In this document: positions 8,449-27,074 of the stretch, in pieces
Layout of the letters: each line of letters opens with the position of its first letter
How positions within the stretch are numbered: the first letter of the stretch is position 1
NCBI GenBank assembly: GCA_964551375.1
Contig: CAZKBG010000001.1
Location: 837,329 to 869,328, forward strand
DNA length: 32,000 nt
From: an uncultured archaeon
GTDB lineage: Archaea; Iainarchaeota; Iainarchaeia; Iainarchaeales; JAAZKV01
Direction of reading: 5' to 3'
Program-made: the position numbers and the translations under genes
The notes under the pieces: generated by a model
What the model saw: the letters and a program-made list of their open reading frames with translations, nothing else
The model's database searches: none
Told to the model about the DNA's origin: nothing

Positions 8449-8526
8449 AAACTCCTATTGTTTATGATTAATACGCGGTTAAATACTTTTAAAAACCTTA
8501 AACAGCAGGCTAATTGTGAAGGTGGC

Positions 8527-9561
8527 ATGATGGCAGAGAAGAAAAAAAGAATGATAAGCGTAACTTTTACAGGAAAAGAACTCCTAAGCAACGGAGTATT
8601 TGACACTAACGATGAAAAAGTGGCAAAACAATACAACGTTCACGAACAGGGAAAAACATACAAACCGCTTACAATCTTAACAGGCGAAAACGAATTACTG
8701 CCGCTTGTAGAAAAAGAACTTGAAACAATGACTGAAGGCGAAGAAAGAATAGTAAAAATGATAGCAAAAGACGCATTCGGAGAAAGAAGAAACGAACTAC
8801 TAAGAGTAGTGCCACTGCAAAACTTCCACGAACAAAAAATCAATCCCTTCCCGGGGCTTGTTGTAAGAATCGGAAACGCAATGGGAAGAGTGCAAAGCGT
8901 AGGAAGCGGAAGAGTAAGAATAGATTTTAACCATCCACTAGCTGGAAGAGATGTTGAATACAGCATAAGACTTGAAAAAGAATTCAAGGACAAGAAAGAA
9001 ATTGCTGAACAAATGTACGAAAAGTATTATTCAAGAATTCCAGGAACAAAAAAAGAATTCAACGAAGACACACTAACTATTACACTTGAAGGAAACGCAT
9101 TCAAGAACTTAACAAAAGTAAACGAAGCAATCACAGACATTGCAAAACAATTCAACTTAAAATTGGATTTTAAAGAAAGTGAAGCATTGCCTGAATTAGT
9201 TCATGAACACACCCATACGGGTGCAGGCGACCACCAAGGACATTCGCACAGCCACGAAGGACATGTTCACGGACCTGAATGCAACCATGACCACGACAAT
9301 CACGAACACGCACATTCTCACAGCCATTCGGCTGCAGGCGAAGAAGAGGAAGAGCACGTTCATGGGCCTAATTGCAATCACACCCATGCGGGTGCAGGCA
9401 ACCATTCGGAAGAGGAAGAAGCTGAAGAAGAACAGGAGAAGCCAGTAAATATTCACAAACTTGCTGATACACTTAGCAAAAATAAGAAGTCAAATGTTCA
9501 ATTTGATACAACAAAAGACACAGCTTCAACAATACAAAGACCAAAGAAGAAAAACTACTAA
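8527..9561 (+). CDS. slyD: SlyD-type FKBP peptidyl-prolyl isomerase with His/Cys/acidic metal-binding tail
   Basis: SlyD/archaeal FKBP motifs: VFDTNDEKVAKQ, PLTILTGENELLPLVEKELETMTEGEE, DAFGERRNELL and the hallmark RIDFNHPLAGRDVEY. A His-rich tail follows (nt 9202-9441). Track start 8458 is TTG, 10 nt from the divergent gene. ATG-ATG at 8527/8530 preceded by AGGTGG is more plausible. Confidence 0.8.
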   Translation: MMAEKKKRMISVTFTGKELLSNGVFDTNDEKVAKQYNVHEQGKTYKPLTILTGENELLPLVEKELETMTEGEERIVKMIAKDAFGERRNELLRVVPLQNFHEQKINPFPGLVVRIGNAMGRVQSVGSGRVRIDFNHPLAGRDVEYSIRLEKEFKDKKEIAEQMYEKYYSRIPGTKKEFNEDTLTITLEGNAFKNLTKVNEAITDIAKQFNLKLDFKESEALPELVHEHTHTGAGDHQGHSHSHEGHVHGPECNHDHDNHEHAHSHSHSAAGEEEEEHVHGPNCNHTHAGAGNHSEEEEAEEEQEKPVNIHKLADTLSKNKKSNVQFDTTKDTASTIQRPKKKNY

Positions 9562-9603: not shown

Positions 9604-9849
9604 TTATTCAGGCATCTTTTTGCCGCGAAGCTTTCTTGATTTCCAAACTAACTCATAAGCTTTTGACTTTTTAGCGTTTGCGGAGTTAAGATACTTTAAA
9701 CCAGTTGGCGACATCATTCTTGACGGACCTTCTCCAAGCTGCATCATATATGCATTTGCCTGCGCATTTTCCTTTCTTGCAGAACGAAGAAGCCTTTTTG
9801 CTCTAAGAAGAGCAACTTTAGCTCTTGTGCGCTTAAACATGAAATACAA
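9604..9849 (-). CDS. Small highly basic hypothetical protein
   Basis: 81-aa ORF (TTG start at 9849; first ATG at 9840 gives MFKRTRAKVALLRAKRLL...). Lys/Arg-rich, no recognised family. Confidence 0.4.
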   Translation of the reverse strand: MYFMFKRTRAKVALLRAKRLLRSARKENAQANAYMMQLGEGPSRMMSPTGLKYLNSANAKKSKAYELVWKSRKLRGKKMPE

Positions 9850-9946
9850 TCAGCCGAGCTGGTTAATTAGAGTATCTGTTTAGACTGATAAGAGAGGGCT
9901 AAAAGCAAATTCAAAAGCATTAAAAGACAAAAAGAGCACTAATTTT

Positions 9947-10810: not shown

Positions 10811-11410
10811 GTGGTAAAGATGAACATGAAATACTTAGGACTGGGAATTGTCGGAATAATAGTCTTAATCGCAATCATCTTGGGAGTAATATACATGGTA
10901 TCATACAACACCATGGTAGGACTTGATCAGGATGTTAACGCAAAATGGAGCGAAGTAGAAAATCAGTACCAAAGACAGGCTGATTTAATACCAAACTTTG
11001 TTGATACTGTAAAAAGTCAGGTAAGCGTTGAAACAAAATTTGTTAAAGACGTAATTGCGGCAAGAACTGCTTGGCAGGGAGCTGGAACTTCACAACTAGC
11101 AAAAGACACTGCAGGACAGCAAATGAACAGCGGAATAAACGCATTTGTTAATGCAGTTGCTGAAAGTTATCCTAACTTAGCTGCAAGCGAAGCTTATACA
11201 GCTTTACGAGATGAACTTGCTGGAACTCAAAACAGAATCACAACATCAAGAGGAAGATACATTGAGTCAATCCAAAGCTATAACACTACAATTAGAAGCA
11301 TACCATACAATTTCTTTAGTGGAATGTTTGGATTTAGTGTAAAAGAATATTATACTGCAAATCCATCCTCAATGGAAACACCTGACTTAAACGGAATGTT
11401 ACCGCAATAA
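10811..11410 (+). CDS. lemA: LemA family protein
   Basis: N-terminal TM, then YNTMVGLDQDVNAKWSEVENQYQRQADLIPNFVDTVK, AESYPNLAASEAY, RGRYIESIQSYNTTIRSIPYNFFSGMFGF (LemA signature pattern). Track start is GTG 10811. ATG 10820 has GGAG 8 nt upstream. Confidence 0.85.
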   Translation: MVKMNMKYLGLGIVGIIVLIAIILGVIYMVSYNTMVGLDQDVNAKWSEVENQYQRQADLIPNFVDTVKSQVSVETKFVKDVIAARTAWQGAGTSQLAKDTAGQQMNSGINAFVNAVAESYPNLAASEAYTALRDELAGTQNRITTSRGRYIESIQSYNTTIRSIPYNFFSGMFGFSVKEYYTANPSSMETPDLNGMLPQ

Positions 11411-11490: not shown

Positions 11491-11850
11491 TTAAAGCTTT
11501 CCATGCGTTCTTCTGGGAATACTTCTTCCAAAAGGCTTTGTAAAAGAAGAGCCGCCAGGATGGTGATTAATATCATACCTAGAAACCCTTGGCTTTTTTG
11601 GAAGCACTACTCCCCTTTGCATGGATTTAATTTTAATCTGACTATTTGGAAACCTTGCTGAAATAATTCCCCTAATTAACTTAGAAACAACCTCTCCGGA
11701 AACATTTGGCTTAATTTTCCTTGCTAATGCAATCATTTGCGCAGGATCAATCCTAACAGTTCCTGATTTAGCCGCTGAAACTACTAAAGGCGTAATTTGC
11801 TTTAAAATTGCCCTGCTTTGTTCATCAGTAATTCTATTCTCATGAGCCAT
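11491..11850 (-). CDS. Hypothetical protein
   Basis: 119-aa ORF, basic C-terminus, no recognised motif. Confidence 0.45.
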   Translation of the reverse strand: MAHENRITDEQSRAILKQITPLVVSAAKSGTVRIDPAQMIALARKIKPNVSGEVVSKLIRGIISARFPNSQIKIKSMQRGVVLPKKPRVSRYDINHHPGGSSFTKPFGRSIPRRTHGKL

Positions 11851-11907: not shown

Positions 11908-12759
11908 ATGAATTATAATTCATGTATGGTTGAAATATCAGGATTCATAATAACATTTAGAGAAACGCTAGAGGTAATACTAATCCTAGGCGCAATAGTA
12001 GCATACTTAGCAGCTACAAAACAACAAAAAAACTTAAAACAAGTATATTCAGGAGCCCTAGCTGGAATGGCACTAAGCGTAATATTTGCATTTGGATTCA
12101 TTGCACTAATTGGAAAATTTGAAGGAGTGGCAGAAGAACTCTTTGAAGGAACTTTGTTATTAGTTGGAGCACTAATTGTTACATTACTAGTAATTTGGCT
12201 AACAAAAACCGCTCACGGTGTAAAAGGAATAAAAGAAAACGTTCTTGACAAACTCAACGTAATGGAAGCAGGAAGCGTATTCTTGATTTCAATGATTGTA
12301 GTACTACGCGAAGGCGTAGAAGCAGTACTATTCCTAGGCGCACTAAGCATAGAAGACTCCGCACTCGCAATAGGCGCAATAATTGGAATAATAATAGGAA
12401 TAGCAATAGGATACTTAATTTACAAAAACCTAATCAAAATTGACTTAATCAAAATGATGGCAGGAATTAGCGTACTATTAGTGCTCTTTGGAGCAGGAAT
12501 GGTTGGACAAGGACTCCATGAACTCCAAGAAGCAAAAGTACTTCCCTTCATGGAAGACAAAATCTATGACATTGGTGGAACACAAAACCCAGACGGAAGC
12601 TACTCACTCCTACACGAAAAAGGATTTATCGGCGGAGTACTAAAAGGAGTATTAGGATATGACTCAAATCCCTCACAACTACAAGTGCTTGGATATATTT
12701 TGTATTTAGTGGTGATGGGGGCGTTATTAATTCCCTTGAAAAAAAAAGGCAGTGTTTAA
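11908..12759 (+). CDS. FTR1/EfeU-family high-affinity iron permease
   Basis: Two REXXE motifs within hydrophobic segments (FRETLEVIL and LREGVEAVL) and multiple TM segments. Its stop codon overlaps the stop of the convergent gene 12756-14105. Confidence 0.8.
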   Translation: MNYNSCMVEISGFIITFRETLEVILILGAIVAYLAATKQQKNLKQVYSGALAGMALSVIFAFGFIALIGKFEGVAEELFEGTLLLVGALIVTLLVIWLTKTAHGVKGIKENVLDKLNVMEAGSVFLISMIVVLREGVEAVLFLGALSIEDSALAIGAIIGIIIGIAIGYLIYKNLIKIDLIKMMAGISVLLVLFGAGMVGQGLHELQEAKVLPFMEDKIYDIGGTQNPDGSYSLLHEKGFIGGVLKGVLGYDSNPSQLQVLGYILYLVVMGALLIPLKKKGSV

Positions 12760-14105
12760 GCTAAATGTAAGCGTCCTTTGTTTTCATACACTTTTCCTAA
12801 GTTTAAAAGCTCATTAAGGGCTTGATCAAAAAGCTTTTTTGAAAAATCTAATTTTAATTTTTCCCATAGTTCTTCTTGTGTTTTTGAGGACAAAGATAAT
12901 TCAATATGTATTCGTTCGTGTATTCCTTCTGCCTTTTTGTAATTTAAATCGGGTTTAAATTCTTGCTCAAGTTCAATTGACTTTTGTAACAAAGATTCAC
13001 TTACTTCGGGGATTAGCAACACATTGAGTAAACCGGTGCGCATAATTTTTTCCCCCTGTTTGATTGTGCTTGTTGTTAAGTTAGGCTCCCTGTTTATTTT
13101 TGCAATTGATGTAGCAATTGCTTCAATTTTATTGTTGGCAATTATATCACTTAATGGTGAATAGCTTACGCTTGTTTCTTTGTTTATTATCTTTGCAAGA
13201 CGTTGTGTTGCAGCATTTATTTCTTCTCGTACTTCATTGGTAAAAGTTGGATTAGGTAATTTATTTGCATAAAATATTGAATATCTAATATCTTCTACGT
13301 CTTTTTGGTCGTATTTTGGAGAGCATAATCCTTCTTCATCAACATTATTTATCAGTTCTGCTTTTTTAGTTGTGAGCTTATTTACTATGCGGTTTGTGTC
13401 ATTTTGGGGGGCTCCAAGCAGATAGTCTATTTCTTTGTAGTTTGGTAGATTTCTTTTAATTAATTGTTCTTGATCTGGGGCAAGAAATGCTGCTTCACTA
13501 TATCTATTTTGAAAAAAGTAATGATCAGAATTATTGGGGTCAATTTTGTTGTATGCTTTCATTAAGTCCAAATATTCTATTTTTTGATAGTGATTTGGGA
13601 TATTTGCAAATAATCCTATGCCCCCAGTTGGACTGAAATTATTTCCTATTAATGATAGCAAGAAAGAGTTAGTTGATTCAGCGTTTATGGACGCGCTGAA
13701 ATAGTTTTGATAATCATTTAAGTTGTTTATTGGGGGTGTGTCAAGCTCTTTTATCCAGTCGAATTCACTTTCTTGTATGGTGTATACTTCAAAAAACTTG
13801 TTTTCTAATTTTGGAAATTTTAATGTTTTGCGATTATATATGTTGTATCTTTTTCCAGTTATTTTTACATTCTTCCCAATTAGATTTTTGTACGATTTAT
13901 TTTCTGGAAAATCAAGATTTATTTTTTGGGGATTTTCAAATTCCATTGTTAAAATGGGTCTGCGAGTCTGTGTTTCAATGCTTAATATTCCTTCAAGTTC
14001 TATTATGCTGTCTGGTTTTGCTGAATTAAATCGTTCTTGTAGCCGTTTTGTTCTTGCTTTGTACTGTGGTAAAGAATAATGTTGTAGTCCTGTGTAAATC
14101 CCCAT
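12756..14105 (-). CDS. MCM-like protein lacking Walker A/B (putative inactivated helicase homologue) with C-terminal winged helix
   Basis: 449-aa ORF with an SD-like AGGAAGTG upstream. By memory alignment, segments DVEDIRYSIFYANKLPNPTFTNEV and IEAIATSIAKINREPNLTTSTIKQGEKIMR match the MCM lid region. The terminal LNELLNLGKVYENKGRLHLA looks wH-like. GLFANIPNHYQK sits where MCM has GDPGTAKS. Not verified by search. Confidence 0.55.
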   Translation of the reverse strand: MGIYTGLQHYSLPQYKARTKRLQERFNSAKPDSIIELEGILSIETQTRRPILTMEFENPQKINLDFPENKSYKNLIGKNVKITGKRYNIYNRKTLKFPKLENKFFEVYTIQESEFDWIKELDTPPINNLNDYQNYFSASINAESTNSFLLSLIGNNFSPTGGIGLFANIPNHYQKIEYLDLMKAYNKIDPNNSDHYFFQNRYSEAAFLAPDQEQLIKRNLPNYKEIDYLLGAPQNDTNRIVNKLTTKKAELINNVDEEGLCSPKYDQKDVEDIRYSIFYANKLPNPTFTNEVREEINAATQRLAKIINKETSVSYSPLSDIIANNKIEAIATSIAKINREPNLTTSTIKQGEKIMRTGLLNVLLIPEVSESLLQKSIELEQEFKPDLNYKKAEGIHERIHIELSLSSKTQEELWEKLKLDFSKKLFDQALNELLNLGKVYENKGRLHLA

Positions 14106-14378
14106 TTTAACACTTCCTTGATTTATTCAGTCTGATTGCTTATTTTCTGAATAAGGCAAATTAGAGAAAGTGTTGGGTTGCCAGAACCACGGATTGGTTG
14201 TAGCATTTCTCTAGTTAATTCTAAGGGCTTTGAAAGATTAATACTTTTTGAGTTTGAAAAGTAAACGCTTGGGGGTTGTGGGCAAAATAAAATCCAAACC
14301 CCTGTTTTTTTGGTTTATTGGCAAAGAACCAAAGCAAGATTTATATCTATCCAAACGCATTAATCTATTGTGTAATAA

Positions 14379-15038
14379 ATGCCCTACAAACTCTCACCCT
14401 CAGCAATTAACTTATTTTTAGAATGTCCTCGCTGCTTTTGGCTAGATAAACACGACAAGTGGAAACGCCCTGCAGGAATATTCCCTTCTTTGCCTTCCGG
14501 AATGGATAGAATACTAAAAGAACACTTTGACAAGTTCAGAGACGCGGGCAAACTTCCTCCAGAAATTTGCGAAAACTCTCACTGCAAACACCTAAAAATC
14601 TTTGGCGAAACAAAAGAAGAAAAAGAACTAATCACTGTATGGAGAAACAACTTCAAAGGAATAAGATACACAGACTCAGAAGGAAATGTTCTATTTGGAG
14701 CAGTAGATAATATTTTGAAAGATAAAGAAACACTTATTGTTCTTGACTACAAAACCCGCGGATTCCCTGTAAAAGAAGACACTCACACACACTACCAAAA
14801 CCAAATGGACACATACAACTTCCTGCTCCGCAAAAACGGATATGAAACAGAAGACTACACTTTTCTATTATTTTACATTCCTTCAAAAGTGCTAGAAACT
14901 GGGGAAGTGGTATTTGACACAACATTAGTAAAGATTAAAACAAACCCAAAAAGCGCAGAAAAAGTGTTCAAAAATGCTTTGAAGTGCCTTGAAGGTAACG
15001 AGCCGGAAGAGAAGTGCGAGTGGTGTGGGAAAGCCTAA
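14379..15038 (+). CDS. Cas4/RecB-like PD-(D/E)XK nuclease with Cys cluster (stand-alone)
   Basis: 219-aa ORF. N-terminal CPRCFW, GAVDNIL, LIVLDYKTRG (D-x-K core), QMDTYNFLL (QxxxY), C-terminal CLEGNEPEEKCEWCG. This is the Cas4/AddB-type Fe-S nuclease layout. Confidence 0.75.
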   Translation: MPYKLSPSAINLFLECPRCFWLDKHDKWKRPAGIFPSLPSGMDRILKEHFDKFRDAGKLPPEICENSHCKHLKIFGETKEEKELITVWRNNFKGIRYTDSEGNVLFGAVDNILKDKETLIVLDYKTRGFPVKEDTHTHYQNQMDTYNFLLRKNGYETEDYTFLLFYIPSKVLETGEVVFDTTLVKIKTNPKSAEKVFKNALKCLEGNEPEEKCEWCGKA

Positions 15039-15051
15039 TTTTTTGTTAGCT

Positions 15052-15537
15052 TTATCGTTTGATAGCATTTTCGATTTTTTCGGCTTTTTTTCTAAATACG
15101 GTGGCTTCTTTTCTTAATTCTCTTGTTAATTCGTAATCTTTCGGTATTGTTCCCCTAACTTTATTTCCTTTTGGTTTTGAAATATGCAGAATTAATGTTT
15201 CAAGATCTTTTAAATACCTAACTTTTTTGAATCTGAAAACACTAAAATTGTTCCATTTTCCAGCATGGTGATCTCTCTTAAAATGCCCCCATAATCTCCA
15301 AAAACTTGATTTGGCAAGTCCAACATAATACAGTTTATCATCACGATATAATGCATATATTCCAGCCCAACCCCGCATCATTTTTCTAAGTCGTTTTCTA
15401 AATGCAGCATCTTCAATAGTTCCTGCTGGAATTCTTTCTAATGAGCCTTTTATTAAAAGTCCTCTATTACCTTTTCTTTTTGGCATAGTGTATTTGTCTA
15501 ACTTAGGTTTTTTCAATCCATCGGTTTTAATGTACAA
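15052..15537 (-). CDS. GIY-YIG domain nuclease-like protein
   Basis: 161-aa ORF. WAGIYALYRDDKLYYVGLAKSSFWRLWGH gives GIY...YVG plus a conserved Arg, followed by LETLILHISKP (conserved Glu). Basic N-terminus. Track start is TTG 15537; first ATG is at 15486. Confidence 0.65.
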   Translation of the reverse strand: MYIKTDGLKKPKLDKYTMPKRKGNRGLLIKGSLERIPAGTIEDAAFRKRLRKMMRGWAGIYALYRDDKLYYVGLAKSSFWRLWGHFKRDHHAGKWNNFSVFRFKKVRYLKDLETLILHISKPKGNKVRGTIPKDYELTRELRKEATVFRKKAEKIENAIKR

Positions 15538-15627
15538 TTGGATGTGGAGTTTATCAAGTTTGATTTAATGAGACAATCTTGGAAAAGTCTCTTACAATTA
15601 ATAAAAAGTTTTTAGATATTCTAAATG

Positions 15628-17514
15628 TTATTTATATTTTGAAAAAATGTTATTGTCTTTGGATAAAAGTCTGGTTGTTTCTGTCCTTACTTCAGCTTTT
15701 AGTTTAAATAGCTTTTTCATGTCCTTACTTATATTTGCAATAGTTTCTTTACTCGGGAGCAAAACAAGTATTTTGCCCAAATCCTCTTCAAGTACTGATG
15801 GGATAGCGGCTCCAATTCTGTATTTTAGCATTTGATTCAAAAATAAATCGGATTTCAAATAGTATAGTAAAAAATAAGGGTCTATTTTAGTTGATTTTAA
15901 AACTCTAAACCCATTTGTGCAAATTGCCCCTGAAAATTCGTTAGTTACAATTGCCGTTGCATGATTTTGTGTGCCGGTTGATACTCCTGCAACTTCAGTT
16001 ATTATTTCATCAGGTTCGAGTTCATATGAGGCACGACTTGGTGCGTCAGCAACTTTGATATTAGTTGCAGAACTTATTTCAGACCCTTCGGAATTTATGT
16101 CAGTAATTTCAACGTAGCGTATTGTGGCCTCGTTGTCTTTAAGTTTTGTTGACTTTTTGGATTTTATTTCAACAAGTTCATTAAGCGGAACAGCTTTTTT
16201 TGATTTTAAATATGAAATTATTTCTTCAAAACGAGGCATGTAAAACTCTGCATCAAGGCGATCTTCAAGTTCACTAAAGTTTTTCAAATAGTACTTATCG
16301 GTGAATTTAAATGAGTCTCCATTTTCAAATTTCTTAAAATGGTTTGTGATTATAGTCATATCTTCATCTAATATTTGAGTCCCGTCTTTGTCAGTTTTGT
16401 ATTTTGGGGTGGCATTTTTATCCCCATAATATCCGACATTTTTAATGATTCCAAAAAAAACTTTGTAGTCTTTACTTTCTTTTTTAGAGTTACTTTTCTG
16501 CAAAAATAAAATTGATGTTTTTATTCCAGTCCCGTGTGGGATAAATGTTTCAGAAGGCATTGAAATAATTCCAAGCACTTTTGTTTTTTTGCGAATGAAA
16601 TCTCTGACAAATTTAGCTGTTTTATTCTCGAGAATTCCATCTGGCAAAACGATTGCAAGTCGCCCACCATCTTTTAGCAAGTTAATGCATCTTTCAATAA
16701 ATAATATTTCTGGGGGTTGTGCTTTATTAAGTGATGAATCATTTTTTGATTGGGCTAATTCAAAGTTCTTTAAATATGTGGGATCTTCAATTTTACCTTG
16801 AATTCCAAACGGTGGATTTGTTAAAACTAAATCATATTCATTTGGGGCTTTGTTTGATGTGAAAAGGGCATTAATATTTTCCAAGCTGTCTCCCAAAATA
16901 ATTTTTGAATTACCATCGCCCTCGAGTACCATTCTAATTTTTGCTAATTTTATTATTGAAGGGCTTATTTCAATTCCGGTGATATTATTTGCTAGCTTAC
17001 TGAATTCTTTGCCTTCTATTTTTTTCATATATCTTAAACTTTGTATTAAAAATCCGCCCGTGCCACAAGCAGGGTCAATTAATTTGAATGAACTTTTTGG
17101 ATTTATGCAATTAACAACTAAATCTATTATTGGGTCAGGGGTTAGAAACTGGCCACGGTCCCCTCGTTGTGTTGAAAAAATAAATTTTTGAAAAGCAATT
17201 CCTTTAACATCATCATCAATTGAACTTAAATTTATGTTGGCAAGTTCTTTCAAAGCATAGGCTAATGTTTTTTCTTTTAGCTTGATTTTATCATTTGACT
17301 CAAATAAAGTTGGATAATCGGAAAGTATGGTTTCAAAAACTTTGTTGGCAGTTGATTCGTTTATTTGTTTGGAGTTTTTATCAGAATAAATTTTAACAAA
17401 GAGAATTTTTGTAAATTCATTTAACGCTTCTTGAGGGGAAAGTCCATCATTGGCATAAATGTGGTTGTGAATTTTGCCAAAAAGTTTAAACAATGTGTTT
17501 GCATCAAAAGACAT
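15628..17514 (-). CDS. N6-adenine DNA methyltransferase (gamma class, HsdM-like) fused to a single HsdS-type target-recognition domain
   Basis: 628-aa ORF. Motif I LIDPACGTGGFL, motif IV VLTNPPFG. The C-terminal ~200 aa resembles one type I specificity TRD (PLNELVEIKSKK...IRYVEITDINSEG...). Confidence 0.9.
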   Translation of the reverse strand: MSFDANTLFKLFGKIHNHIYANDGLSPQEALNEFTKILFVKIYSDKNSKQINESTANKVFETILSDYPTLFESNDKIKLKEKTLAYALKELANINLSSIDDDVKGIAFQKFIFSTQRGDRGQFLTPDPIIDLVVNCINPKSSFKLIDPACGTGGFLIQSLRYMKKIEGKEFSKLANNITGIEISPSIIKLAKIRMVLEGDGNSKIILGDSLENINALFTSNKAPNEYDLVLTNPPFGIQGKIEDPTYLKNFELAQSKNDSSLNKAQPPEILFIERCINLLKDGGRLAIVLPDGILENKTAKFVRDFIRKKTKVLGIISMPSETFIPHGTGIKTSILFLQKSNSKKESKDYKVFFGIIKNVGYYGDKNATPKYKTDKDGTQILDEDMTIITNHFKKFENGDSFKFTDKYYLKNFSELEDRLDAEFYMPRFEEIISYLKSKKAVPLNELVEIKSKKSTKLKDNEATIRYVEITDINSEGSEISSATNIKVADAPSRASYELEPDEIITEVAGVSTGTQNHATAIVTNEFSGAICTNGFRVLKSTKIDPYFLLYYLKSDLFLNQMLKYRIGAAIPSVLEEDLGKILVLLPSKETIANISKDMKKLFKLKAEVRTETTRLLSKDNNIFSKYK

Positions 17515-17538
17515 AGTTCACATATGTGTAAAACTAAT

Positions 17539-18489
17539 TTATAAACCTTCTTCAAGTGTTTTGCCATTATCGTCGCCACGGTGATCGATCTGCATATCTT
17601 TTTCATTAATTGCATCTTTTTTGTTAACTTTTATCTTGGAAATATCTGTTACCCAAGGCGTAACGGGGGTTATTTTATCAAATGGGCTGAATAAAATGGC
17701 AACAATGTAGTTTTGTTGCAAATGATTTTTATCGGCCGAAGATGGTGCAAGTAATTTTGGATTAGCGAACAAAAAATCGTGTTTTCCGGTTCTTATAAAT
17801 AAATCAAGGCCCAATACATTAAATTCATCAATTCGTGGAGTAGCTTGTGTTCTTGCGCTTTTTTCAGACCCTCCTGAAACTAAGTGGGTTTCAATAACTC
17901 TTATTTTTGACATTACGTATGCTAAACGCTCTTCTATTAATTTGTCAAGTTCCTCAATTGGCAAAGATTTTAGTTTAGAAATTATCTTTGACTTGTTGGT
18001 AGTTCGCCCATTAGCATTGTATTTTTTAATGTCGTTGAATGTGTATAGCTCTTCGGAATATTTTGATAGAAAAAGAGGGAGTTCTTTTTTTATAAATTCT
18101 TCGATTTGCTTTTCACTTTTGAATGGAGTGATGTGGATATGTTTTGTTAAAAAGCCAATTAAATTATTGTAATTATAAAGTCGGTGCCATTTTTCTGAAT
18201 TTGACTTTACTCCTTTAGACTCAAGAACAAACCATGGCTTGTCTCCTTTGATTCTAATATAAAAGTCTCCGTGATGATTTGGGTGCTTGTCCCCTTCCCA
18301 TTTTTCTTTGATTCGTAGTAATTCAAATCCTTTTTGCATTAGCTGTCTTTTTAGTAAAATCTCTGAAATTGCGCCCGCTAAATATCCTTGAGCGTTTGGA
18401 CTCATTAGAATAGCTTGTTCAAATGTTGAAATATCTACTGCAAAAAGCCTTTTTACAAGAAGTTCAATTCGGTTTTCCTGTGTGCACAT
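17539..18489 (-). CDS. Putative restriction endonuclease (PD-(D/E)XK candidate) partner of the methyltransferase
   Basis: 316-aa ORF, co-directional and ending 24 nt upstream of the MTase start. Candidate catalytic core HHGDFYIRIKGDKPWFVLESKGVKS (D ... E-S-K). No other domain recognised. Confidence 0.6.
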   Translation of the reverse strand: MCTQENRIELLVKRLFAVDISTFEQAILMSPNAQGYLAGAISEILLKRQLMQKGFELLRIKEKWEGDKHPNHHGDFYIRIKGDKPWFVLESKGVKSNSEKWHRLYNYNNLIGFLTKHIHITPFKSEKQIEEFIKKELPLFLSKYSEELYTFNDIKKYNANGRTTNKSKIISKLKSLPIEELDKLIEERLAYVMSKIRVIETHLVSGGSEKSARTQATPRIDEFNVLGLDLFIRTGKHDFLFANPKLLAPSSADKNHLQQNYIVAILFSPFDKITPVTPWVTDISKIKVNKKDAINEKDMQIDHRGDDNGKTLEEGL

Positions 18490-18570
18490 AATATCTCAAA
18501 TAATAAAAGTCATTATTAATCTATAGCCGGTTGACTTTGACAGTAATCTACTGGCCCTCCCCCTCAACCT

Positions 18571-18594: not shown

Positions 18595-19926
18595 TTGGAG
18601 TTTAAGGTGGTCTATTTGGCAGGATACGAGGATTTTGTGGATTTGGGTTATAAGCCTAATAATAAGGATGTTATTGCGAGTTTTAAGGTGAAGGTGCCTG
18701 AGTGGGAAACTCCTGAAAGGGCATTTGGAGCAGTTGCTTCTGAGAGTTCTGTAGGAACTTGGACTGATTTAGATATTTGGGCAAAATACCCTCATGTGAA
18801 GAAAGTTGCGGGGAAGGTTTACTCAATTGAACACTCGCCAAACGGATACTGGATAAAAATAGCTTACCCTGAAGACCATTTTGAGCAGGCAAATCCAAGC
18901 CAAATACTAGCATCAATTGCTGGAAACGTTTTTGGAATGAAAGCAGTGGACGGACTAAGACTACAAGACATTGAATTTACAAAAACCATGATGAAAGAAT
19001 ACAGAGGACCGCAATTTGGAATAAAAGGAGTAAGAAAAATCTTTGGAGTAGACAAAAGACCACTAATGCTATCAGTTGCTAAGCCAAAAGTTGGAATGAC
19101 TACCGCAGAACACGCGGATATTGGATACCAAATATGGACTGGCGGTTTAGATCTATTAAAAGATGATGAAAACTTAACTAACCAGAAATTTAATCCATTC
19201 AAAAAAAGAGTAACTGCTTCGCTAAAACTAAGAAACAAAGCAGAGAAAGAAACAGGAGAAAGAAAATCATACTTAATTAACGTAACCGCTCCAACAGTGC
19301 AAGAAATGATTGAAAGAGCAAGGTATGTAAAAAAAGAAGGCGGAGAATACGTAATGATTGACATCATTGCGTCAGGATGGACTGCATTAAACAGTTTAAG
19401 AGAAGAATGCGAAGATTTAGGACTTGCAATACACGCGCATAGAGCAATGCACGGCGCAATGACAAGAAACCAAGACCACGGATTCTCAATGAACTGCGTA
19501 TCAAAATTCTCAAGATTAATCGGAGTAGACCAATTACACATTGGAACTGTGTTTGGAAAACTTGTCAGCCCTAAAGAAGAAGTTTTAGAGTGCCAAAAGA
19601 ACTTAACTTTGCCAAAAGTAAAGGCTGATATGACGCACCACTACTTAAACCAAGATTGGGCAAAAATGGAGCAAGTATTCCCAGTATCAAGCGGAGGACT
19701 ACACCCTGGAATTGTGGATAAAATAATGGGACTATTAGGAACTAATATTATGCTGCAGCTTGGCGGAGGAGTGCACGGACACCCGCAAGGAAGCCACGCA
19801 GGAGCTGTTGCAATGAGAGCAGCTGTTGAAGCGGTTCTTGACAAAATTAGCGCTGAAGAAAAAGCAAAAACATGCCCAGAGCTAAAAGTAGCATTAAAAC
19901 AATGGGGACACTCAATGCCAAAATAA
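18595..19926 (+). CDS. rbcL: Ribulose-1,5-bisphosphate carboxylase/oxygenase large subunit, form III (archaeal type)
   Basis: Full-length resemblance to Thermococcus-type RbcL: AVASESSVGTWT, ILASIAGNVFGMK, GGLDLLKDDENL, LAIHAHRAMHGA, VSSGGLHPG, LQLGGGVHGHPQG. Track start is TTG 18595. In-frame GTG 18607 preceded by GGAG is an alternative start. Confidence 0.95.
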   Translation: MEFKVVYLAGYEDFVDLGYKPNNKDVIASFKVKVPEWETPERAFGAVASESSVGTWTDLDIWAKYPHVKKVAGKVYSIEHSPNGYWIKIAYPEDHFEQANPSQILASIAGNVFGMKAVDGLRLQDIEFTKTMMKEYRGPQFGIKGVRKIFGVDKRPLMLSVAKPKVGMTTAEHADIGYQIWTGGLDLLKDDENLTNQKFNPFKKRVTASLKLRNKAEKETGERKSYLINVTAPTVQEMIERARYVKKEGGEYVMIDIIASGWTALNSLREECEDLGLAIHAHRAMHGAMTRNQDHGFSMNCVSKFSRLIGVDQLHIGTVFGKLVSPKEEVLECQKNLTLPKVKADMTHHYLNQDWAKMEQVFPVSSGGLHPGIVDKIMGLLGTNIMLQLGGGVHGHPQGSHAGAVAMRAAVEAVLDKISAEEKAKTCPELKVALKQWGHSMPK

Positions 19927-19952: not shown

Positions 19953-19986
19953 TGCCTGCAAAAGAAGCAGGCAGACAACTTTTTTT
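19953..19986 (+). terminator. Putative terminator: hairpin TGCCTGC/GCAGGCA followed by T7
   Basis: 7-bp stem (19953-19959 / 19967-19973) 27 nt after the RuBisCO stop, then a T run at 19980-19986 and two further oligo-T tracts before the next gene. Confidence 0.45.
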
Positions 19987-20072
19987 ATATGCGAAAAAGT
20001 TTTTTACAAGCAAAAAAACTTTTTTTCTTTAAAACACAGCTTTTTTTAAACAAAAACAACACTAATTAACTT

Positions 20073-20660
20073 ATGAGAGTATCACAAAGAGCAAGAGAAC
20101 TCAAAAGAGCAGCTGCGTTTAAGCCAAAGCGAAAACTAAAAGTAAAACTGATTTCGCCTGAGAATAAAGAAGCTTTGGGATTTGCAATATTTCCAAAAAC
20201 CGGGCCAAAAGTAAAATTAGGATTTATTACAAGAGGGCATAGAGAATCATATATTAAAAGAGCAGGCGTATTTTCACAAGCTTTAAGGCAATTTGAAGCT
20301 TTGGAAAGAAAAACAATCTCAGAAGTTGGATTTGTAGAATACCGAAAAGCAATAATTGGGATGATTAGAGAAGACCACAAGCACACAGGGCCTATTGGAG
20401 TAATCCCAAATATTAAGTTTTTACTTGAACTAAAAAAACCGCACTTCATTGATTATGCTAAAATATACGAATCAGTGATTGTTCTCTTAAAAAAAGGTTA
20501 TTCTCTTACTCCTCCAAGCCTTGCTTACTTAAGAGAAAAAAATCCTAAATTAAGGGCTTCAAGAAGCGAAGTAATAAAGTATTTGGAAACAAACAGAAGA
20601 AGGTTAGAAAGAGTAAAATACGAAAATAGAGCGCTATTAGTGCTCACAAAACCATTGTGA
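20073..20660 (+). CDS. Hypothetical basic protein
   Basis: 195-aa ORF, Lys/Arg-rich, no recognised motif. Confidence 0.5.
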   Translation: MRVSQRARELKRAAAFKPKRKLKVKLISPENKEALGFAIFPKTGPKVKLGFITRGHRESYIKRAGVFSQALRQFEALERKTISEVGFVEYRKAIIGMIREDHKHTGPIGVIPNIKFLLELKKPHFIDYAKIYESVIVLLKKGYSLTPPSLAYLREKNPKLRASRSEVIKYLETNRRRLERVKYENRALLVLTKPL

Positions 20661-22781: not shown

Positions 22782-22854
22782 GCCTCTTTCGTCCAGCGGT
22801 CTAGGATTCACCCCTGTCACGGGTGCGACCCGGGTTCAAATCCCGGAGGAGGCG
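22782..22854 (+). tRNA. tRNA-Asp: tRNA-Asp (anticodon GUC)
   Basis: Hand-folded cloverleaf. Acceptor GCCTCTT/AGGAGGC (one G-U), D stem GTCC/GGAT, anticodon stem CACCC/GGGTG with loop CTGTCAC. T arm CCGGG-TTCAAAT-CCCGG, discriminator G. 73 nt, no encoded CCA, no intron. Confidence 0.9.
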
Positions 22855-23797
22855 CTTCAACACATTTTATTGGACAAAAGCTTTGTTTTGGCAACCATTG
22901 TTTTTTTCCTTTAAAGTATATTTCTTTCCATCTTTTTAGTTGAGCTTTTTCAGAGTAGTTGTAAATGACTCCAATAGCGTCTGTTAATTTTTTTTGTTTT
23001 CTAATTATGGAAAAACAAATTTTCTTGTGAAATATTAAGGTGTCTTCAAATTTTAAAGTTTCGACTGAAAATAAGTTTTTTGTTCTTGTTAAAATTCTTC
23101 CATTAATTTTAGAATCTGATTGCCCTATTTTATGGGCAAGACGAAGAGCAGATTTTATTGTGAAAAATCTAATTAGCAAGTTTTGGGTATATTCTAATAA
23201 TTCAAAATTAGTGCTTGCTGCGATGGCAAGCCGGACTCCAAACCTATTGCTTGCTTTAATTATTGGGCAGCCTTCCGAATCAGCCAGTCCTTGAATAAAA
23301 TCGGCTGGAAATACTTCGATTAGCGGCTTTATTAAATCAAAATTAATTTTCGCCGCTCTTACAAATTCATATAGTTCTTTACTTCGGATGTTTGTGTGAA
23401 ACATATTTGGTTTGTGAAAGTGCACTGGATAGTCTGTAGTTTTGTTAAGTATTGTTGTAACGCAATGTGAAAACTTTTCCACAAATTCTTTATCAATTGC
23501 GCCTAGTTGAATGCAATAATCATAGTTGCTTTTGTGAATGCTTATGTTTCCATCTCCAAACATAACGCCCAAAAAGTAGGACATTTCTTGGCTTGGCGCT
23601 ATTTTGAAAGTATTTTTTTGAATTTTTGATAACGGATTGTTTTTCCAATAAGATAAGGTTCCAGTTGAAATAGAAATTCCTTTTTCAAGCAACGTGCGTT
23701 TTATTCTTTTAAATCCAAGTCCTTCTTTAATTAGTTGTTTTATTTGGGATTTAAGCGCTTCTTGTTCACTTCCAGCCAAGTCAGAAAACCGAGTCAT
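22817..23797 (-). CDS. Free-standing double-motif LAGLIDADG homing-endonuclease-like protein with N-terminal HTH
   Basis: 326-aa ORF. Motifs SYFLGVMFGDGNISI and ADFIQGLADSEGCPI lie about 90 aa apart, and both acidic residues are present. N-terminal KEGLGFKRIKRTLLEKGISISTGTLSYW looks HTH-like. The last 38 nt (22817-22854) are antisense to tRNA-Asp. Confidence 0.75.
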   Translation of the reverse strand: MTRFSDLAGSEQEALKSQIKQLIKEGLGFKRIKRTLLEKGISISTGTLSYWKNNPLSKIQKNTFKIAPSQEMSYFLGVMFGDGNISIHKSNYDYCIQLGAIDKEFVEKFSHCVTTILNKTTDYPVHFHKPNMFHTNIRSKELYEFVRAAKINFDLIKPLIEVFPADFIQGLADSEGCPIIKASNRFGVRLAIAASTNFELLEYTQNLLIRFFTIKSALRLAHKIGQSDSKINGRILTRTKNLFSVETLKFEDTLIFHKKICFSIIRKQKKLTDAIGVIYNYSEKAQLKRWKEIYFKGKKQWLPKQSFCPIKCVEAPPPGFEPGSHP

Positions 23798-26039: not shown

Positions 26040-26477
26040 ATGTTTGATAGAAAAGGACAATCAGCTTTGGAATATCTAATGACTTACGGATGGGCACTAA
26101 TCGTTATTGCTATCGTTATCGGAGTATTAATCTTCGTAACAAGCGGAGCAACAGGCGGTGTAACTTGCCAGTCACAGTCAACAGGAATCCAAGTAACTGA
26201 ATGGGCTGTTAAAGCAGGTTCAGACGGTGTTGGTTTAACACTTAGAAATGCAACTGGAGGAACTATAACTCCAACAGGAGCAGCAGGTGCTGGTGTATTC
26301 ACTGACACTAACAACACAGCATTTTCACTAGTTGTGAGAAACAATACATTCACAGTTCAGGGAATAGACGGACCAATAGCAGGACAGACTTTCTCAACAG
26401 GATACGTTGATGTAAATTACATAACTCAGGGAAATCTAACTGCAACAGCAAGAATTGTTTGCTCAGGAACAGTATAA
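26040..26477 (+). CDS. Archaeal type IV pilin-like protein (class III signal peptide)
   Basis: MFDRKGQSALEYLMTYGWALIVIAIVIGVLIFV has the QxSxExxxL-type prepilin signal (predicted cleavage G|Q). Two Cys (VTCQSQ ... RIVCSG). Followed by a small hairpin and T runs. Confidence 0.8.
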   Translation: MFDRKGQSALEYLMTYGWALIVIAIVIGVLIFVTSGATGGVTCQSQSTGIQVTEWAVKAGSDGVGLTLRNATGGTITPTGAAGAGVFTDTNNTAFSLVVRNNTFTVQGIDGPIAGQTFSTGYVDVNYITQGNLTATARIVCSGTV

Positions 26478-26630
26478 AGTTTTTAACCTCTTAAGCCCAA
26501 AGACTGCCAAAAGCAGTTTTTGGAGCTTCTATTTTTTTAACAGATTTTTATTTTAATGTTGGGCTGCCAGCGTTTTTTTTAAAGCCCTAACTATTAAATA
26601 CTTCAAATAAGTTCATTTGTAAGTGAGATA

Positions 26631-27074
26631 ATGTTTGAAAATAGTGCACAGTCGGCGCTGGAATATTTAACTGCATACGGGTGGGCGCTGATAGTTGTTG
26701 CGCTTATTATTGGAGTATTGATTTTTGTAACAAGCGGGACTACAAGCGGAGTATCCTGCCAAAGCCAGGGTCCTTTTTTTATTGTAAAAGAATGGGTAAT
26801 TAATCCGGGAGCTGGGGGAGTTGGAGTTACTCTCTCAAATGTTACTGGCGGAAATATTAGCTCAATAAGCTCTTACGGCAAAGGAGACTTTGACGGAAAC
26901 GGAATAGTTTCTAATTCATCAGTTTTAAAAAACGGGGAAGTTGTAATACAGGGAATTGATGCGCCTTTAGCAGGGGAAACATTTACAAACGGAAGAATTG
27001 ATATTAATTATGTTACTGAAGGAGGGTTAAATTCCTCAACATACTTAATATGCACAGGATTTCTTCCAGATTAA
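26631..27074 (+). CDS. Archaeal type IV pilin-like protein, paralogue of 26040-26477
   Basis: MFENSAQSALEYLTAYGWALIVVALIIGVLIFV. Shares a C-terminal block with the neighbour (VIQGIDAPLAGETFTNGRIDINYVTEGGL...LICTG vs TVQGIDGPIAGQTFSTGYVDVNYITQGNL...IVCSG). Confidence 0.8.
   Translation: MFENSAQSALEYLTAYGWALIVVALIIGVLIFVTSGTTSGVSCQSQGPFFIVKEWVINPGAGGVGVTLSNVTGGNISSISSYGKGDFDGNGIVSNSSVLKNGEVVIQGIDAPLAGETFTNGRIDINYVTEGGLNSSTYLICTGFLPD

Follow-up and report, generated by a model that had tools for sequence, protein, structure and literature searches.

A probable mosaic of separately distributed genes, among them a putative mobile restriction-modification cassette and a predicted ATPase-dead MCM paralogue, beside the form III RuBisCO gene of an Iainarchaeota archaeon

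When several genes for DNA-processing enzymes stand side by side in a genome, do they form one acquired system, or are they neighbours with separate histories? This question is raised by a stretch of 32,000 nt (the window) on contig CAZKBG010000001.1 of an uncultured Iainarchaeota archaeon, in which five open reading frames (ORFs) of 449, 219, 161 (as listed), 628 and 316 aa lie between a gene for an FTR1 iron permease and rbcL, the gene for a form III RuBisCO. An initial annotation had described the products as an MCM-like protein, a Cas4-like nuclease, a GIY-YIG protein, an N6-adenine methyltransferase with a fused target recognition domain and a PD-(D/E)XK endonuclease, and had read the block as a horizontally acquired defence island or a decayed integrated element, in which the first three genes could form an undescribed module working with or beside the restriction-modification (R-M) pair. 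The ORF listing bears out the coordinates given for all five, profile matches confirm the two neighbouring genes (Table 1), and the convergent stop codons of the permease gene (12757-12759, taa) and the 449-aa gene (12756-12758, tta on the plus strand) do overlap, in the common ttaa at 12756-12759. The block was compared with loci and contigs from other genomes or metagenomes, numbered L003-L060. It is probably a mosaic, i.e., the right-hand part of a hypervariable slot in which at least four units with separate histories, one of them an R-M cassette, have come to lie together.

Four family profiles were searched against the six-frame translations of 61 sequences. No homologue of the Cas4-like, GIY-YIG-like or 316-aa protein was present at the six other loci that encode a relative of the 449-aa protein, and none of the three extra genes was present at the four other loci that hold the R-M cassette. 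The only co-occurrence among the families was that of a Cas4-like and a GIY-YIG-like homologue, seen once (L052), where the two lie 5 kb apart. The three genes proposed as a module therefore do not recur together. PADLOC recognises just the methyltransferase and Cas4 models in the window.

The R-M pair does recur. The 628-aa protein matches N6_Mtase (2.1e-40), Eco57I (1.3e-14) and the PADLOC model MTase_II (3e-69), its translation contains the motifs DPACGTGGF and NPPF, and an S-type recognition domain is found at residues 405-606 (a match to the MAD5 S subunit), in full agreement with an N6-adenine methyltransferase carrying a fused recognition domain. For the 316-aa protein, no sequence match was obtained in Pfam, NCBIfam, PADLOC or PDB; the proposal of a PD-(D/E)XK enzyme is thus without a database match, but it is supported by a PD-(D/E)XK-type pattern: E43, D75 and E90-S-K92 are shared without exception by the 31 homologues aligned. 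The family to which this protein belongs has at least 749 members at 90% clustering, has no Pfam domain and is approximately 50% identical across Chloroflexota, Bacteroidia, Nitrospirota and Caldilineaceae sources; a scan of IMG/VR viral contigs returned no relatives. It represents a large unannotated family of putative restriction endonucleases, and is as such useful for the annotation of R-M systems.

A homologue of the 316-aa gene followed directly, on the same strand, by a methyltransferase gene was found in L040/41, L042/43, L044/45 and L059, and the partner enzymes are 667-690-aa fusions of N6_Mtase and Methylase_S that are 38-52% identical to the window enzyme. The pair was present in every other locus fetched, and no further neighbours are shared among the four loci. 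The hosts of L042/43 are probably Bacteroidota, judging by Por_Secre_tail neighbours, and L044/45 belongs to Chloroflexota, the L044 cassette being more AT-rich than its host (0.43 versus 0.525). L059 is 80% identical to the window at the nucleotide level from 18551 down to 16115, and the homology ends 62 bp before the 316-aa gene begins; the cassette would therefore have its right end at about 18551, just short of the rbcL promoter. Taken together, these comparisons suggest that the pair is a self-contained, mobile two-gene type II R-M cassette spanning approximately 15628-18551, and such a horizontally spread pair, recurring in four loci with otherwise unrelated neighbours, supports the earlier reading in so far as it concerns horizontal acquisition. 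The 62-bp leader of the cassette (18490-18551) is itself conserved between the window and L059 (L059:29-100), and holds two copies of TAGATTA(A/C)T spaced by about 27 nt, possibly a promoter or operator.

Synteny was assessed by tblastn of all window proteins against the rbcL loci of ten relatives. The conserved backbone consists of g7663, FKBP26 (8458-9561), often TPM and LemA, then rbcL, followed by h120, h188 and a gene of the metallo-beta-lactamase fold. The conserved gene nearest rbcL is LemA in L004 (130 bp gap) and L006 (560 bp gap), and FKBP26 in L005 (~180 bp gap) and L013 (~500 bp gap); other cargo lies upstream of rbcL in L007, L009, L010 and L015, namely a membrane protein of 352 aa, proteins of 276 and 705 aa and surface proteins of 1516 and 1345 aa. 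L003 is the closest relative (RbcL 93%), and in it a match to window positions 9774-9881 (L003:68-175, in a region of small ORFs) stands 158 bp from rbcL. The variable segment of the window extends from ~11.4 kb to ~18.55 kb; relative to L003, TPM and LemA are missing too, the left limit shifts to 9.9 kb and the segment could be 8.7 kb. Neither FTR1, h119 (a basic 119-aa protein) nor any of the five block genes was found near rbcL in any of the ten relatives.

These data show that the slot upstream of rbcL is hypervariable, with LemA as the last backbone gene on the left and rbcL as the conserved right flank, and that FTR1 and h119 are further cargo of the same slot and no fixed flank. The block had been described as wedged between two housekeeping-type genes; however, the relatives join LemA or FKBP26 to rbcL, FTR1 is itself variable, and the adjacency of FTR1 and rbcL that would be expected where the island is absent was seen in none of the ten. 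The same comparison agrees with the reading of an acquired block in one respect, as the block is not conserved at this position and is absent beside rbcL in all ten relatives. The rbcL neighbourhood is thus a hotspot of gene exchange in Iainarchaeota, which matters when metabolism is read from metagenome-assembled genomes (MAGs) of DPANN archaea. Integration signals were likewise sought: there is no integrase among the window ORFs, no tRNA gene at the block edges (the sole tRNA in the window is a tRNA-Asp at 22782, and Rfam reported nothing else) and no convincing pair of flanking direct repeats (att sites) at these edges, so that the description of a decayed integrated element finds no support.

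The lower GC content of the block was found to be real. The GC content of 12756-18489 is 0.330 versus 0.372 for the rest of the window, which makes it the lowest stretch of 5.7 kb, at the 0.8th percentile of sliding windows, and the five genes differ from the others in per-gene GC (Mann-Whitney p = 0.011). The four 60-nt spot counts on which the annotation had relied are also exact (21, 19, 30 and 34). However, the drop amounts to only four points, GC at third codon positions (GC3) does not separate the five genes (p = 0.18), and their codon-usage distances lie within the range of the other window genes. The GC content of the Cas4-like gene is ordinary (0.389), other short stretches of the window are equally AT-rich, and the composition does not change abruptly at the left edge, where an abrupt boundary had been reported.

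The 219-aa protein is matched over its full length by PDDEXK_1 (PF12705; 46 bits against a cut-off of 22), and it also matches phrog_31195 (2.3e-41); however, it scores 25.8 bits against the cas4 equivalog TIGR00372, for which the cut-off is 65, so that the label Cas4-like has support at the level of the superfamily. The protein contains the motifs GAVD, DYK and Q..Y, and cysteines in the arrangement CxxC...CxxC, the last of which is missing in the L052 homologue. No CRISPR array is present in the window, no cas genes are found among its annotated ORFs, and no relative of the protein was found among GenBank phages. L052 and L056 encode homologues that are 57-64% identical. The L056 gene is convergent with a 278-aa gene and with a gene for a 775-aa HSDR_N_2/N6_Mtase enzyme, and an IS200-type gene is near; in L052, type I hsdR/hsdS genes lie 7 kb away and the GIY-YIG-like homologue 5 kb away. 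PADLOC reported only Schlafen/AlbA-type matches among the neighbours in these two loci.

The gene listed with 161 codons encodes 144 aa, as its true start is ATG 15486 and not TTG 15537: DNA homology to four loci spans exactly 15052-15487, and the cluster representative is also 144 aa long. Residues G42-I-Y44, Y54-V-G56, R64, H68, E96 and N108 are invariant in five homologues (68-81% identical), and the GIY(x9)YVG, Arg, His, Glu and Asn positions stand at the canonical spacings of GIY-YIG enzymes such as I-TevI. At the profile level, Pfam GIY-YIG (PF01541) does not match the window protein and reaches an E-value of 0.11 in two of the five homologues; phrog_1111 (endonuclease) matches the 144-aa protein at E 0.011, hhalign of the family against the I-TevI sequence gives E 0.03 with 45% identity over 29 columns in the N-terminal half, and a PDB sequence search with the 161-aa form returned nothing significant. 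The GIY-YIG assignment is accordingly retained on its motifs, but it lacks a significant profile match and applies to a protein of 144 aa. At every locus the gene is a single ORF in a differing neighbourhood, the boundaries of homology coincide with the ORF, and no relatives were found in the scan of IMG/VR viral contigs. A role as a second restriction enzyme was considered and rejected, as the homologues lack an adjacent DNA methyltransferase gene. Beside the homologue in L051, a 496-aa protein (L051:2267-3757) joins a CheR-type methyltransferase (2e-30) to a tubulin/FtsZ GTPase (2e-13), which is an unusual domain combination.

The family of the 449-aa protein is the sole unusual item of the block and the one most worth following up. 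As a single sequence, the protein has no match in Pfam (including PF00493), NCBIfam or PDB, and a word-indexed search of 5.8 billion proteins, made with the single sequence or with an alignment, returned nothing but the protein itself. Six relatives, which are 30-39% identical and 456-465 aa long, one of them truncated, were retrieved when 1.84 billion representatives were scanned in full with HMMER, and no relative was found among GenBank phages and PLSDB plasmids. The profile of the family (A1, seven sequences) matches the AAA-lid region of MCM from archaea and eukaryotes (4r7z, E 0.004; 4r7y, E 0.017; 8x7t, residues 507-681, E 0.066), and it also matches the winged helix at the C-terminus of RPA32. 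Alignment by hhalign with the canonical MCM encoded in L060 places residues 273-447 colinear with its lid and winged helix, an alignment that carries no statistical weight. AlphaFold2 gave a useless model from the single sequence (mean predicted confidence, pLDDT, 33.6) and a pLDDT of 64 with the seven-sequence alignment, the confident parts being residues 11-135, an OB-type barrel at the N-terminus, and residues 270-449, a helical and winged-helix region at the C-terminus. When this model was compared with the PDB by Foldseek, all of the top 50 matches were MCM subunits (E 7e-8 to 8e-5), at TM-scores that are low (0.2-0.38). The label MCM-like is thus sustained by fold and profile matches in spite of the missing Pfam hit.

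No conserved Walker A or Walker B motif is present in the seven family members, in which two isolated pattern matches fall at positions that do not align; by contrast, the canonical MCM in L060 is intact (GDPGVAKS, DEFDKM, SRFDL). Translation and alignment also reveal no zinc-binding Cys cluster in the N-terminal domain of about 135 aa. Because the Walker motifs are lacking throughout the family, the protein cannot be a helicase; however, the family is conserved over its full length with 30 invariant positions, which speaks for a functional protein and against a pseudogene. The models and profiles together point to an ATPase-dead, shortened MCM paralogue, composed of an OB-type domain, a degenerate core, lid-like helices and a winged helix.

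The genomic neighbourhoods of the relatives were inspected as well. In L060 (3962-8909), the homologue lies 346 bp downstream of the canonical MCM gene on the same strand; this MCM is a 1231-aa, intein-bearing protein, and Pfam matches place a methionyl-tRNA synthetase gene near it. In L050 (3-1788), the homologue starts 4 nt past the stop codon of a gene, the product of which matches MCM_lid and MCM_WH_arc at its C-terminus, and VapBC and Fic genes lie downstream. The L050 and L060 homologues are 34% identical, and the MCM C-termini of the two loci are very similar by eye; at this level of identity, the adjacency to mcm has survived strong divergence. In L048, a truncated tRNA(UGU) (35.8 bits, L048:1-51) stands 175 nt upstream of the homologue and an AbiEii toxin gene downstream, L049 carries an integrase gene and a gene for an ArdC-N/M78 protein on the same contig, and L046 has ferredoxin, Fur and rubrerythrin genes near the homologue. 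An iron-related role, suggested by FTR1 in the window and by Fur, ferredoxin and rubrerythrin in L046, was judged coincidental, as it concerns two of the seven contexts. Contigs with homologues tend to stop 70-400 bp ahead of the gene, and those of L047 and L048 begin inside tRNA genes, that of L047 by appearance only: its first positions (1-21) read GTTCGACTCCGG... and look like the 3' half of a tRNA, which Rfam does not detect.

The protein is more plausibly related to replication than to defence, and with modest confidence we prefer to read it as a non-catalytic partner that binds DNA or MCM; alternatively, it could serve mobile elements as a replication factor. A more far-reaching and rather doubtful idea, which proceeds by analogy, is that the protein founds a non-catalytic 'mini-MCM' family of DPANN archaea, whose members would assist, chaperone or regulate the replicative MCM, as an archaeal counterpart of MCMBP. 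Their genes would at times lie beside mcm and at times have moved to variable or mobile regions, and mobile elements could even use the proteins there to tap or block host replication. Study of the family could bring to light an accessory factor of the replicative helicase in archaea whose replication machinery is minimal.

How, then, is the block best explained? Probably as a mosaic. For the R-M unit we infer a methyltransferase that acts as a dimer and protects host DNA by methylating a symmetric or bipartite site, and a 316-aa endonuclease that cuts unmodified incoming DNA. The GIY-YIG-like gene would be a second unit that travels as a single ORF through differing neighbourhoods, the RecB/Cas4-like nuclease a third with no CRISPR link, and the MCM paralogue a fourth, which would have lost its Walker A and B motifs and zinc finger and would bind DNA, the replicative MCM or both in a non-catalytic role outside defence. 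The anatomy of the block, the separate distributions of its families and its absence from the relatives are observed directly. Acquisition, which the initial annotation had proposed, accords with this absence, the lower GC content and the mobile R-M pair, but neither an integrated element nor a single system emerges. Viewed as a defence island, the region has nothing out of the ordinary: a mobile type II R-M cassette, its one defence unit, shares a variable slot with unrelated genes, among them two nucleases of uncertain role.

Several observations weigh against this account. The relatives compared are of genus to family level (RbcL is 78-93% identical and other proteins 45-60%), at which insertion here and loss elsewhere are inseparable, and few contexts were sampled for each family. 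Four of the five genes (all but the Cas4-like gene) have low GC in common. The Cas4-like gene is near R-M genes in three of three contexts, which would allow a loose functional link; R-M genes are common. As regards the MCM paralogue, the middle third of the model is of low confidence (residues 155-265 are unmodelled), and L050 and L060 are related, so that the adjacency to MCM comes from roughly one lineage.

Some of the block might be native rather than acquired. If the MCM-like, Cas4-like and GIY-YIG-like genes were native DNA-metabolism genes of Iainarchaeota that vary in position, with the R-M cassette as the only recent foreign insertion, then the normal GC of the Cas4-like gene, the undistinguished codon usage of all five genes, the 57-81% identity of homologues on other metagenome contigs and the link of the MCM-like family to a cellular, intein-bearing MCM in L050 and L060 would be expected. 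However, none of the three lies near rbcL in the ten relatives, the MCM-like family, with its six relatives in 1.84 billion representatives, is too rare for a core gene and adjoins integrase, ArdC-N and toxin-antitoxin genes, and the neighbours of the GIY-YIG-like gene differ in every locus; we regard this account as unlikely, though deserving of some weight. The integrase and ArdC-N gene in L049, and the tRNA 175 nt from the homologue in L048, would fit with a single decayed plasmid or provirus, whose replication module would be the MCM-like and Cas4-like proteins and which would have carried a homing-type endonuclease and the R-M pair as cargo. Additional copies of MCM, like nucleases of the Cas4 type, are a typical feature of integrated elements in archaea, and the block is the stretch of lowest GC in the window. 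Such an origin is nevertheless improbable in view of the missing integrase, edge tRNA and flanking direct repeats, of the lack of phage or plasmid matches for the 449-aa protein, of phage matches for the Cas4-like protein and of IMG/VR relatives for the GIY-YIG-like and 316-aa proteins, of the unrelated distributions of the units and the host-like GC of the Cas4-like gene, and of the R-M cassette, for which a presence independent of the other units is already partly seen in L059.

The annotation's own reading, in which the MCM-like, Cas4-like and GIY-YIG-like genes are an undescribed defence module acting with the R-M pair, draws on the adjacency of the genes and their common low GC, on the identical layout in L056, where a Cas4-like homologue is convergent with a type IIG-like R-M gene, and on L052, where the Cas4-like and GIY-YIG-like homologues have a Schlafen/AlbA_2 ATPase gene and a type I R-M system in their neighbourhood. 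This reading is largely refuted by the failure of the three genes to recur, with zero of six other MCM-like loci and zero of four other cassette loci holding the remaining members; PADLOC recognises only the methyltransferase and Cas4 models, and the MCM-like family is tied to the replicative MCM. We consider it very improbable.

Table 1. Coordinates of the features discussed, given as window positions
Feature	Coordinates	Strand	Basis or remark
LemA gene	10811..11410	+	PF04011; tblastn synteny in L004, L006, L007, L009, L015
h119, basic 119-aa protein	11491..11850	-	variable segment; near rbcL in no relative
FTR1 iron permease	11908..12759	+	PF03239, 8.7e-42; variable segment
Predicted ATPase-dead, shortened MCM paralogue, 449 aa	12756..14105	-	profile and fold matches to MCM
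Divergent intergenic region between MCM-like and Cas4-like genes, 273 bp	14106..14378	.	
RecB/Cas4-like PD-(D/E)XK nuclease, 219 aa	14379..15038	+	PDDEXK_1, 7e-12, 46 bits
GIY-YIG-like protein, 144 aa	15052..15486	-	start ATG 15486
Gamma-class N6-adenine DNA methyltransferase with one S-type target recognition domain, 628 aa	15628..17514	-	
Putative restriction endonuclease, 316 aa	17539..18489	-	unannotated PD-(D/E)XK-type family
Leader preceding the 316-aa gene in the R-M cassette	18490..18551	-	right end of the putatively acquired cassette
Form III RuBisCO (rbcL)	18613..19926	+	TIGR03326, 584 bits versus cut-off 497

The remaining genes of the window encode FKBP26, TPM, LemA, a KaiC-like protein, type IV pilus/archaellum assembly proteins and CorA, and h119 has no Pfam or PADLOC match. 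Iainarchaeota-type DPANN MAGs (Candidatus Iainarchaeum, Forterrea and 'archaeon' MAGs) encode RuBisCOs that share 78-95% identity with the one of the window, which itself lies on a contig of 946 kb. The mechanical ORF of rbcL opens at TTG 18595; homologues all begin with MAGYEDF, which corresponds to TTG 18613, probably the start codon. A TTTATATT box is found ~35 nt upstream of TTG 18613; the promoter and terminator scan used a sigma-70 model, and is uninformative for an archaeon. On the other side of rbcL, the region 19977-20660 is a second, small variable spot: a 195-aa gene located there, between rbcL and the conserved 120-aa gene, is present only in the relatives L012 and L016, AT-rich direct and inverted repeats occupy 19977-20056 just before it, and at this site L013 carries 8 kb of inserted DNA that encodes giant Gly-rich surface proteins. 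Within the block, the Logan assemblies of SRR12133403 and SRR12133404 both break at 14248-14262, between the MCM-like and Cas4-like genes, where the contigs overlap by 15 nt with a perfect match to the window; a graph branch or strain variation may be responsible. Further downstream, a 326-aa LAGLIDADG_3 protein gene (22817-23797, minus strand) abuts and nominally overlaps the tRNA-Asp gene (22782-22855), and adjacent 145- and 147-aa genes at 26040-27074, neither of which has a Pfam domain, both match one single gene of L015 and look like a tandem duplication.

The units of the block can be compared with known systems. The 144-aa family has the GIY, YVG, Arg, His, Glu and Asn set of the GIY-YIG domain as in I-TevI; however, it lacks a significant profile match and a recognisable DNA-binding domain. 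Hpy188I is an example of a small GIY-YIG enzyme. The 219-aa protein shares with Cas4/RecB nucleases (PF12705; TIGR00372) the full-length PDDEXK_1 domain, the GxVD, DYK and Q..Y motifs and four cysteines, but it falls under the equivalog cut-off, has no cas genes or CRISPR array nearby, and arranges its cysteines as CxxC...CxxC rather than C...CxxCx5C. The best NCBIfam matches of the methyltransferase are to MAD2 (286 bits) and MAD5 (56 bits) of MADS; membership of that system was rejected, however, as both scores fall far short of what is required (720 and 400, respectively) and the remaining MAD genes are missing, and the matches are explained by general relatedness of HsdM and HsdS proteins.

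AhdI, a type II endonuclease that acts with a type I-like M2S2 methyltransferase (PMC2878638, PMC2275141), provides a closer parallel for the R-M cassette. In both, a separate endonuclease gene lies beside the gene for an HsdM-family N6-adenine methyltransferase, an S-type recognition domain would read the DNA, and two components operate with no ATP-dependent HsdR. However, the window cassette fuses M and a single half-S in the 628-aa polypeptide, has no gene for a controller (C) protein, is ordered R then M on one strand, and draws its putative endonuclease from an unannotated family with no sequence match in Pfam, NCBIfam or PDB.

Inactive and truncated MCM paralogues are known from archaea, namely Methanopyrus kandleri MCM2 (PDB 3F8T) and the 312-315-aa N-terminal-only MCMs of haloarchaea (PMC3972481, PMC4619765), and MCM paralogues outside the core group have been noted (PMC3972481). 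Like these, the 449-aa family would have an MCM-derived fold, is not expected to have helicase activity and is extra to a canonical MCM. It differs from them in that Walker A and B are entirely absent, the zinc finger is missing and the lid and winged helix appear to be kept; in addition, the N-terminal domain and core are much shortened, the similarity to MCM is at the limit of detection, and the family is very rare. A further likeness would be to MCMBP, the eukaryotic protein with an MCM-like domain that lacks Walker A and serves as a chaperone of MCM2-7 assembly (PMC9018068). MCMBP is eukaryotic, and the comparison with the 449-aa family is one of function, drawn purely by analogy; however, the two have in common an MCM-like character without Walker A, and two members of the 449-aa family, whose genes follow directly on that of the replicative MCM, suggest a partnership with this helicase.

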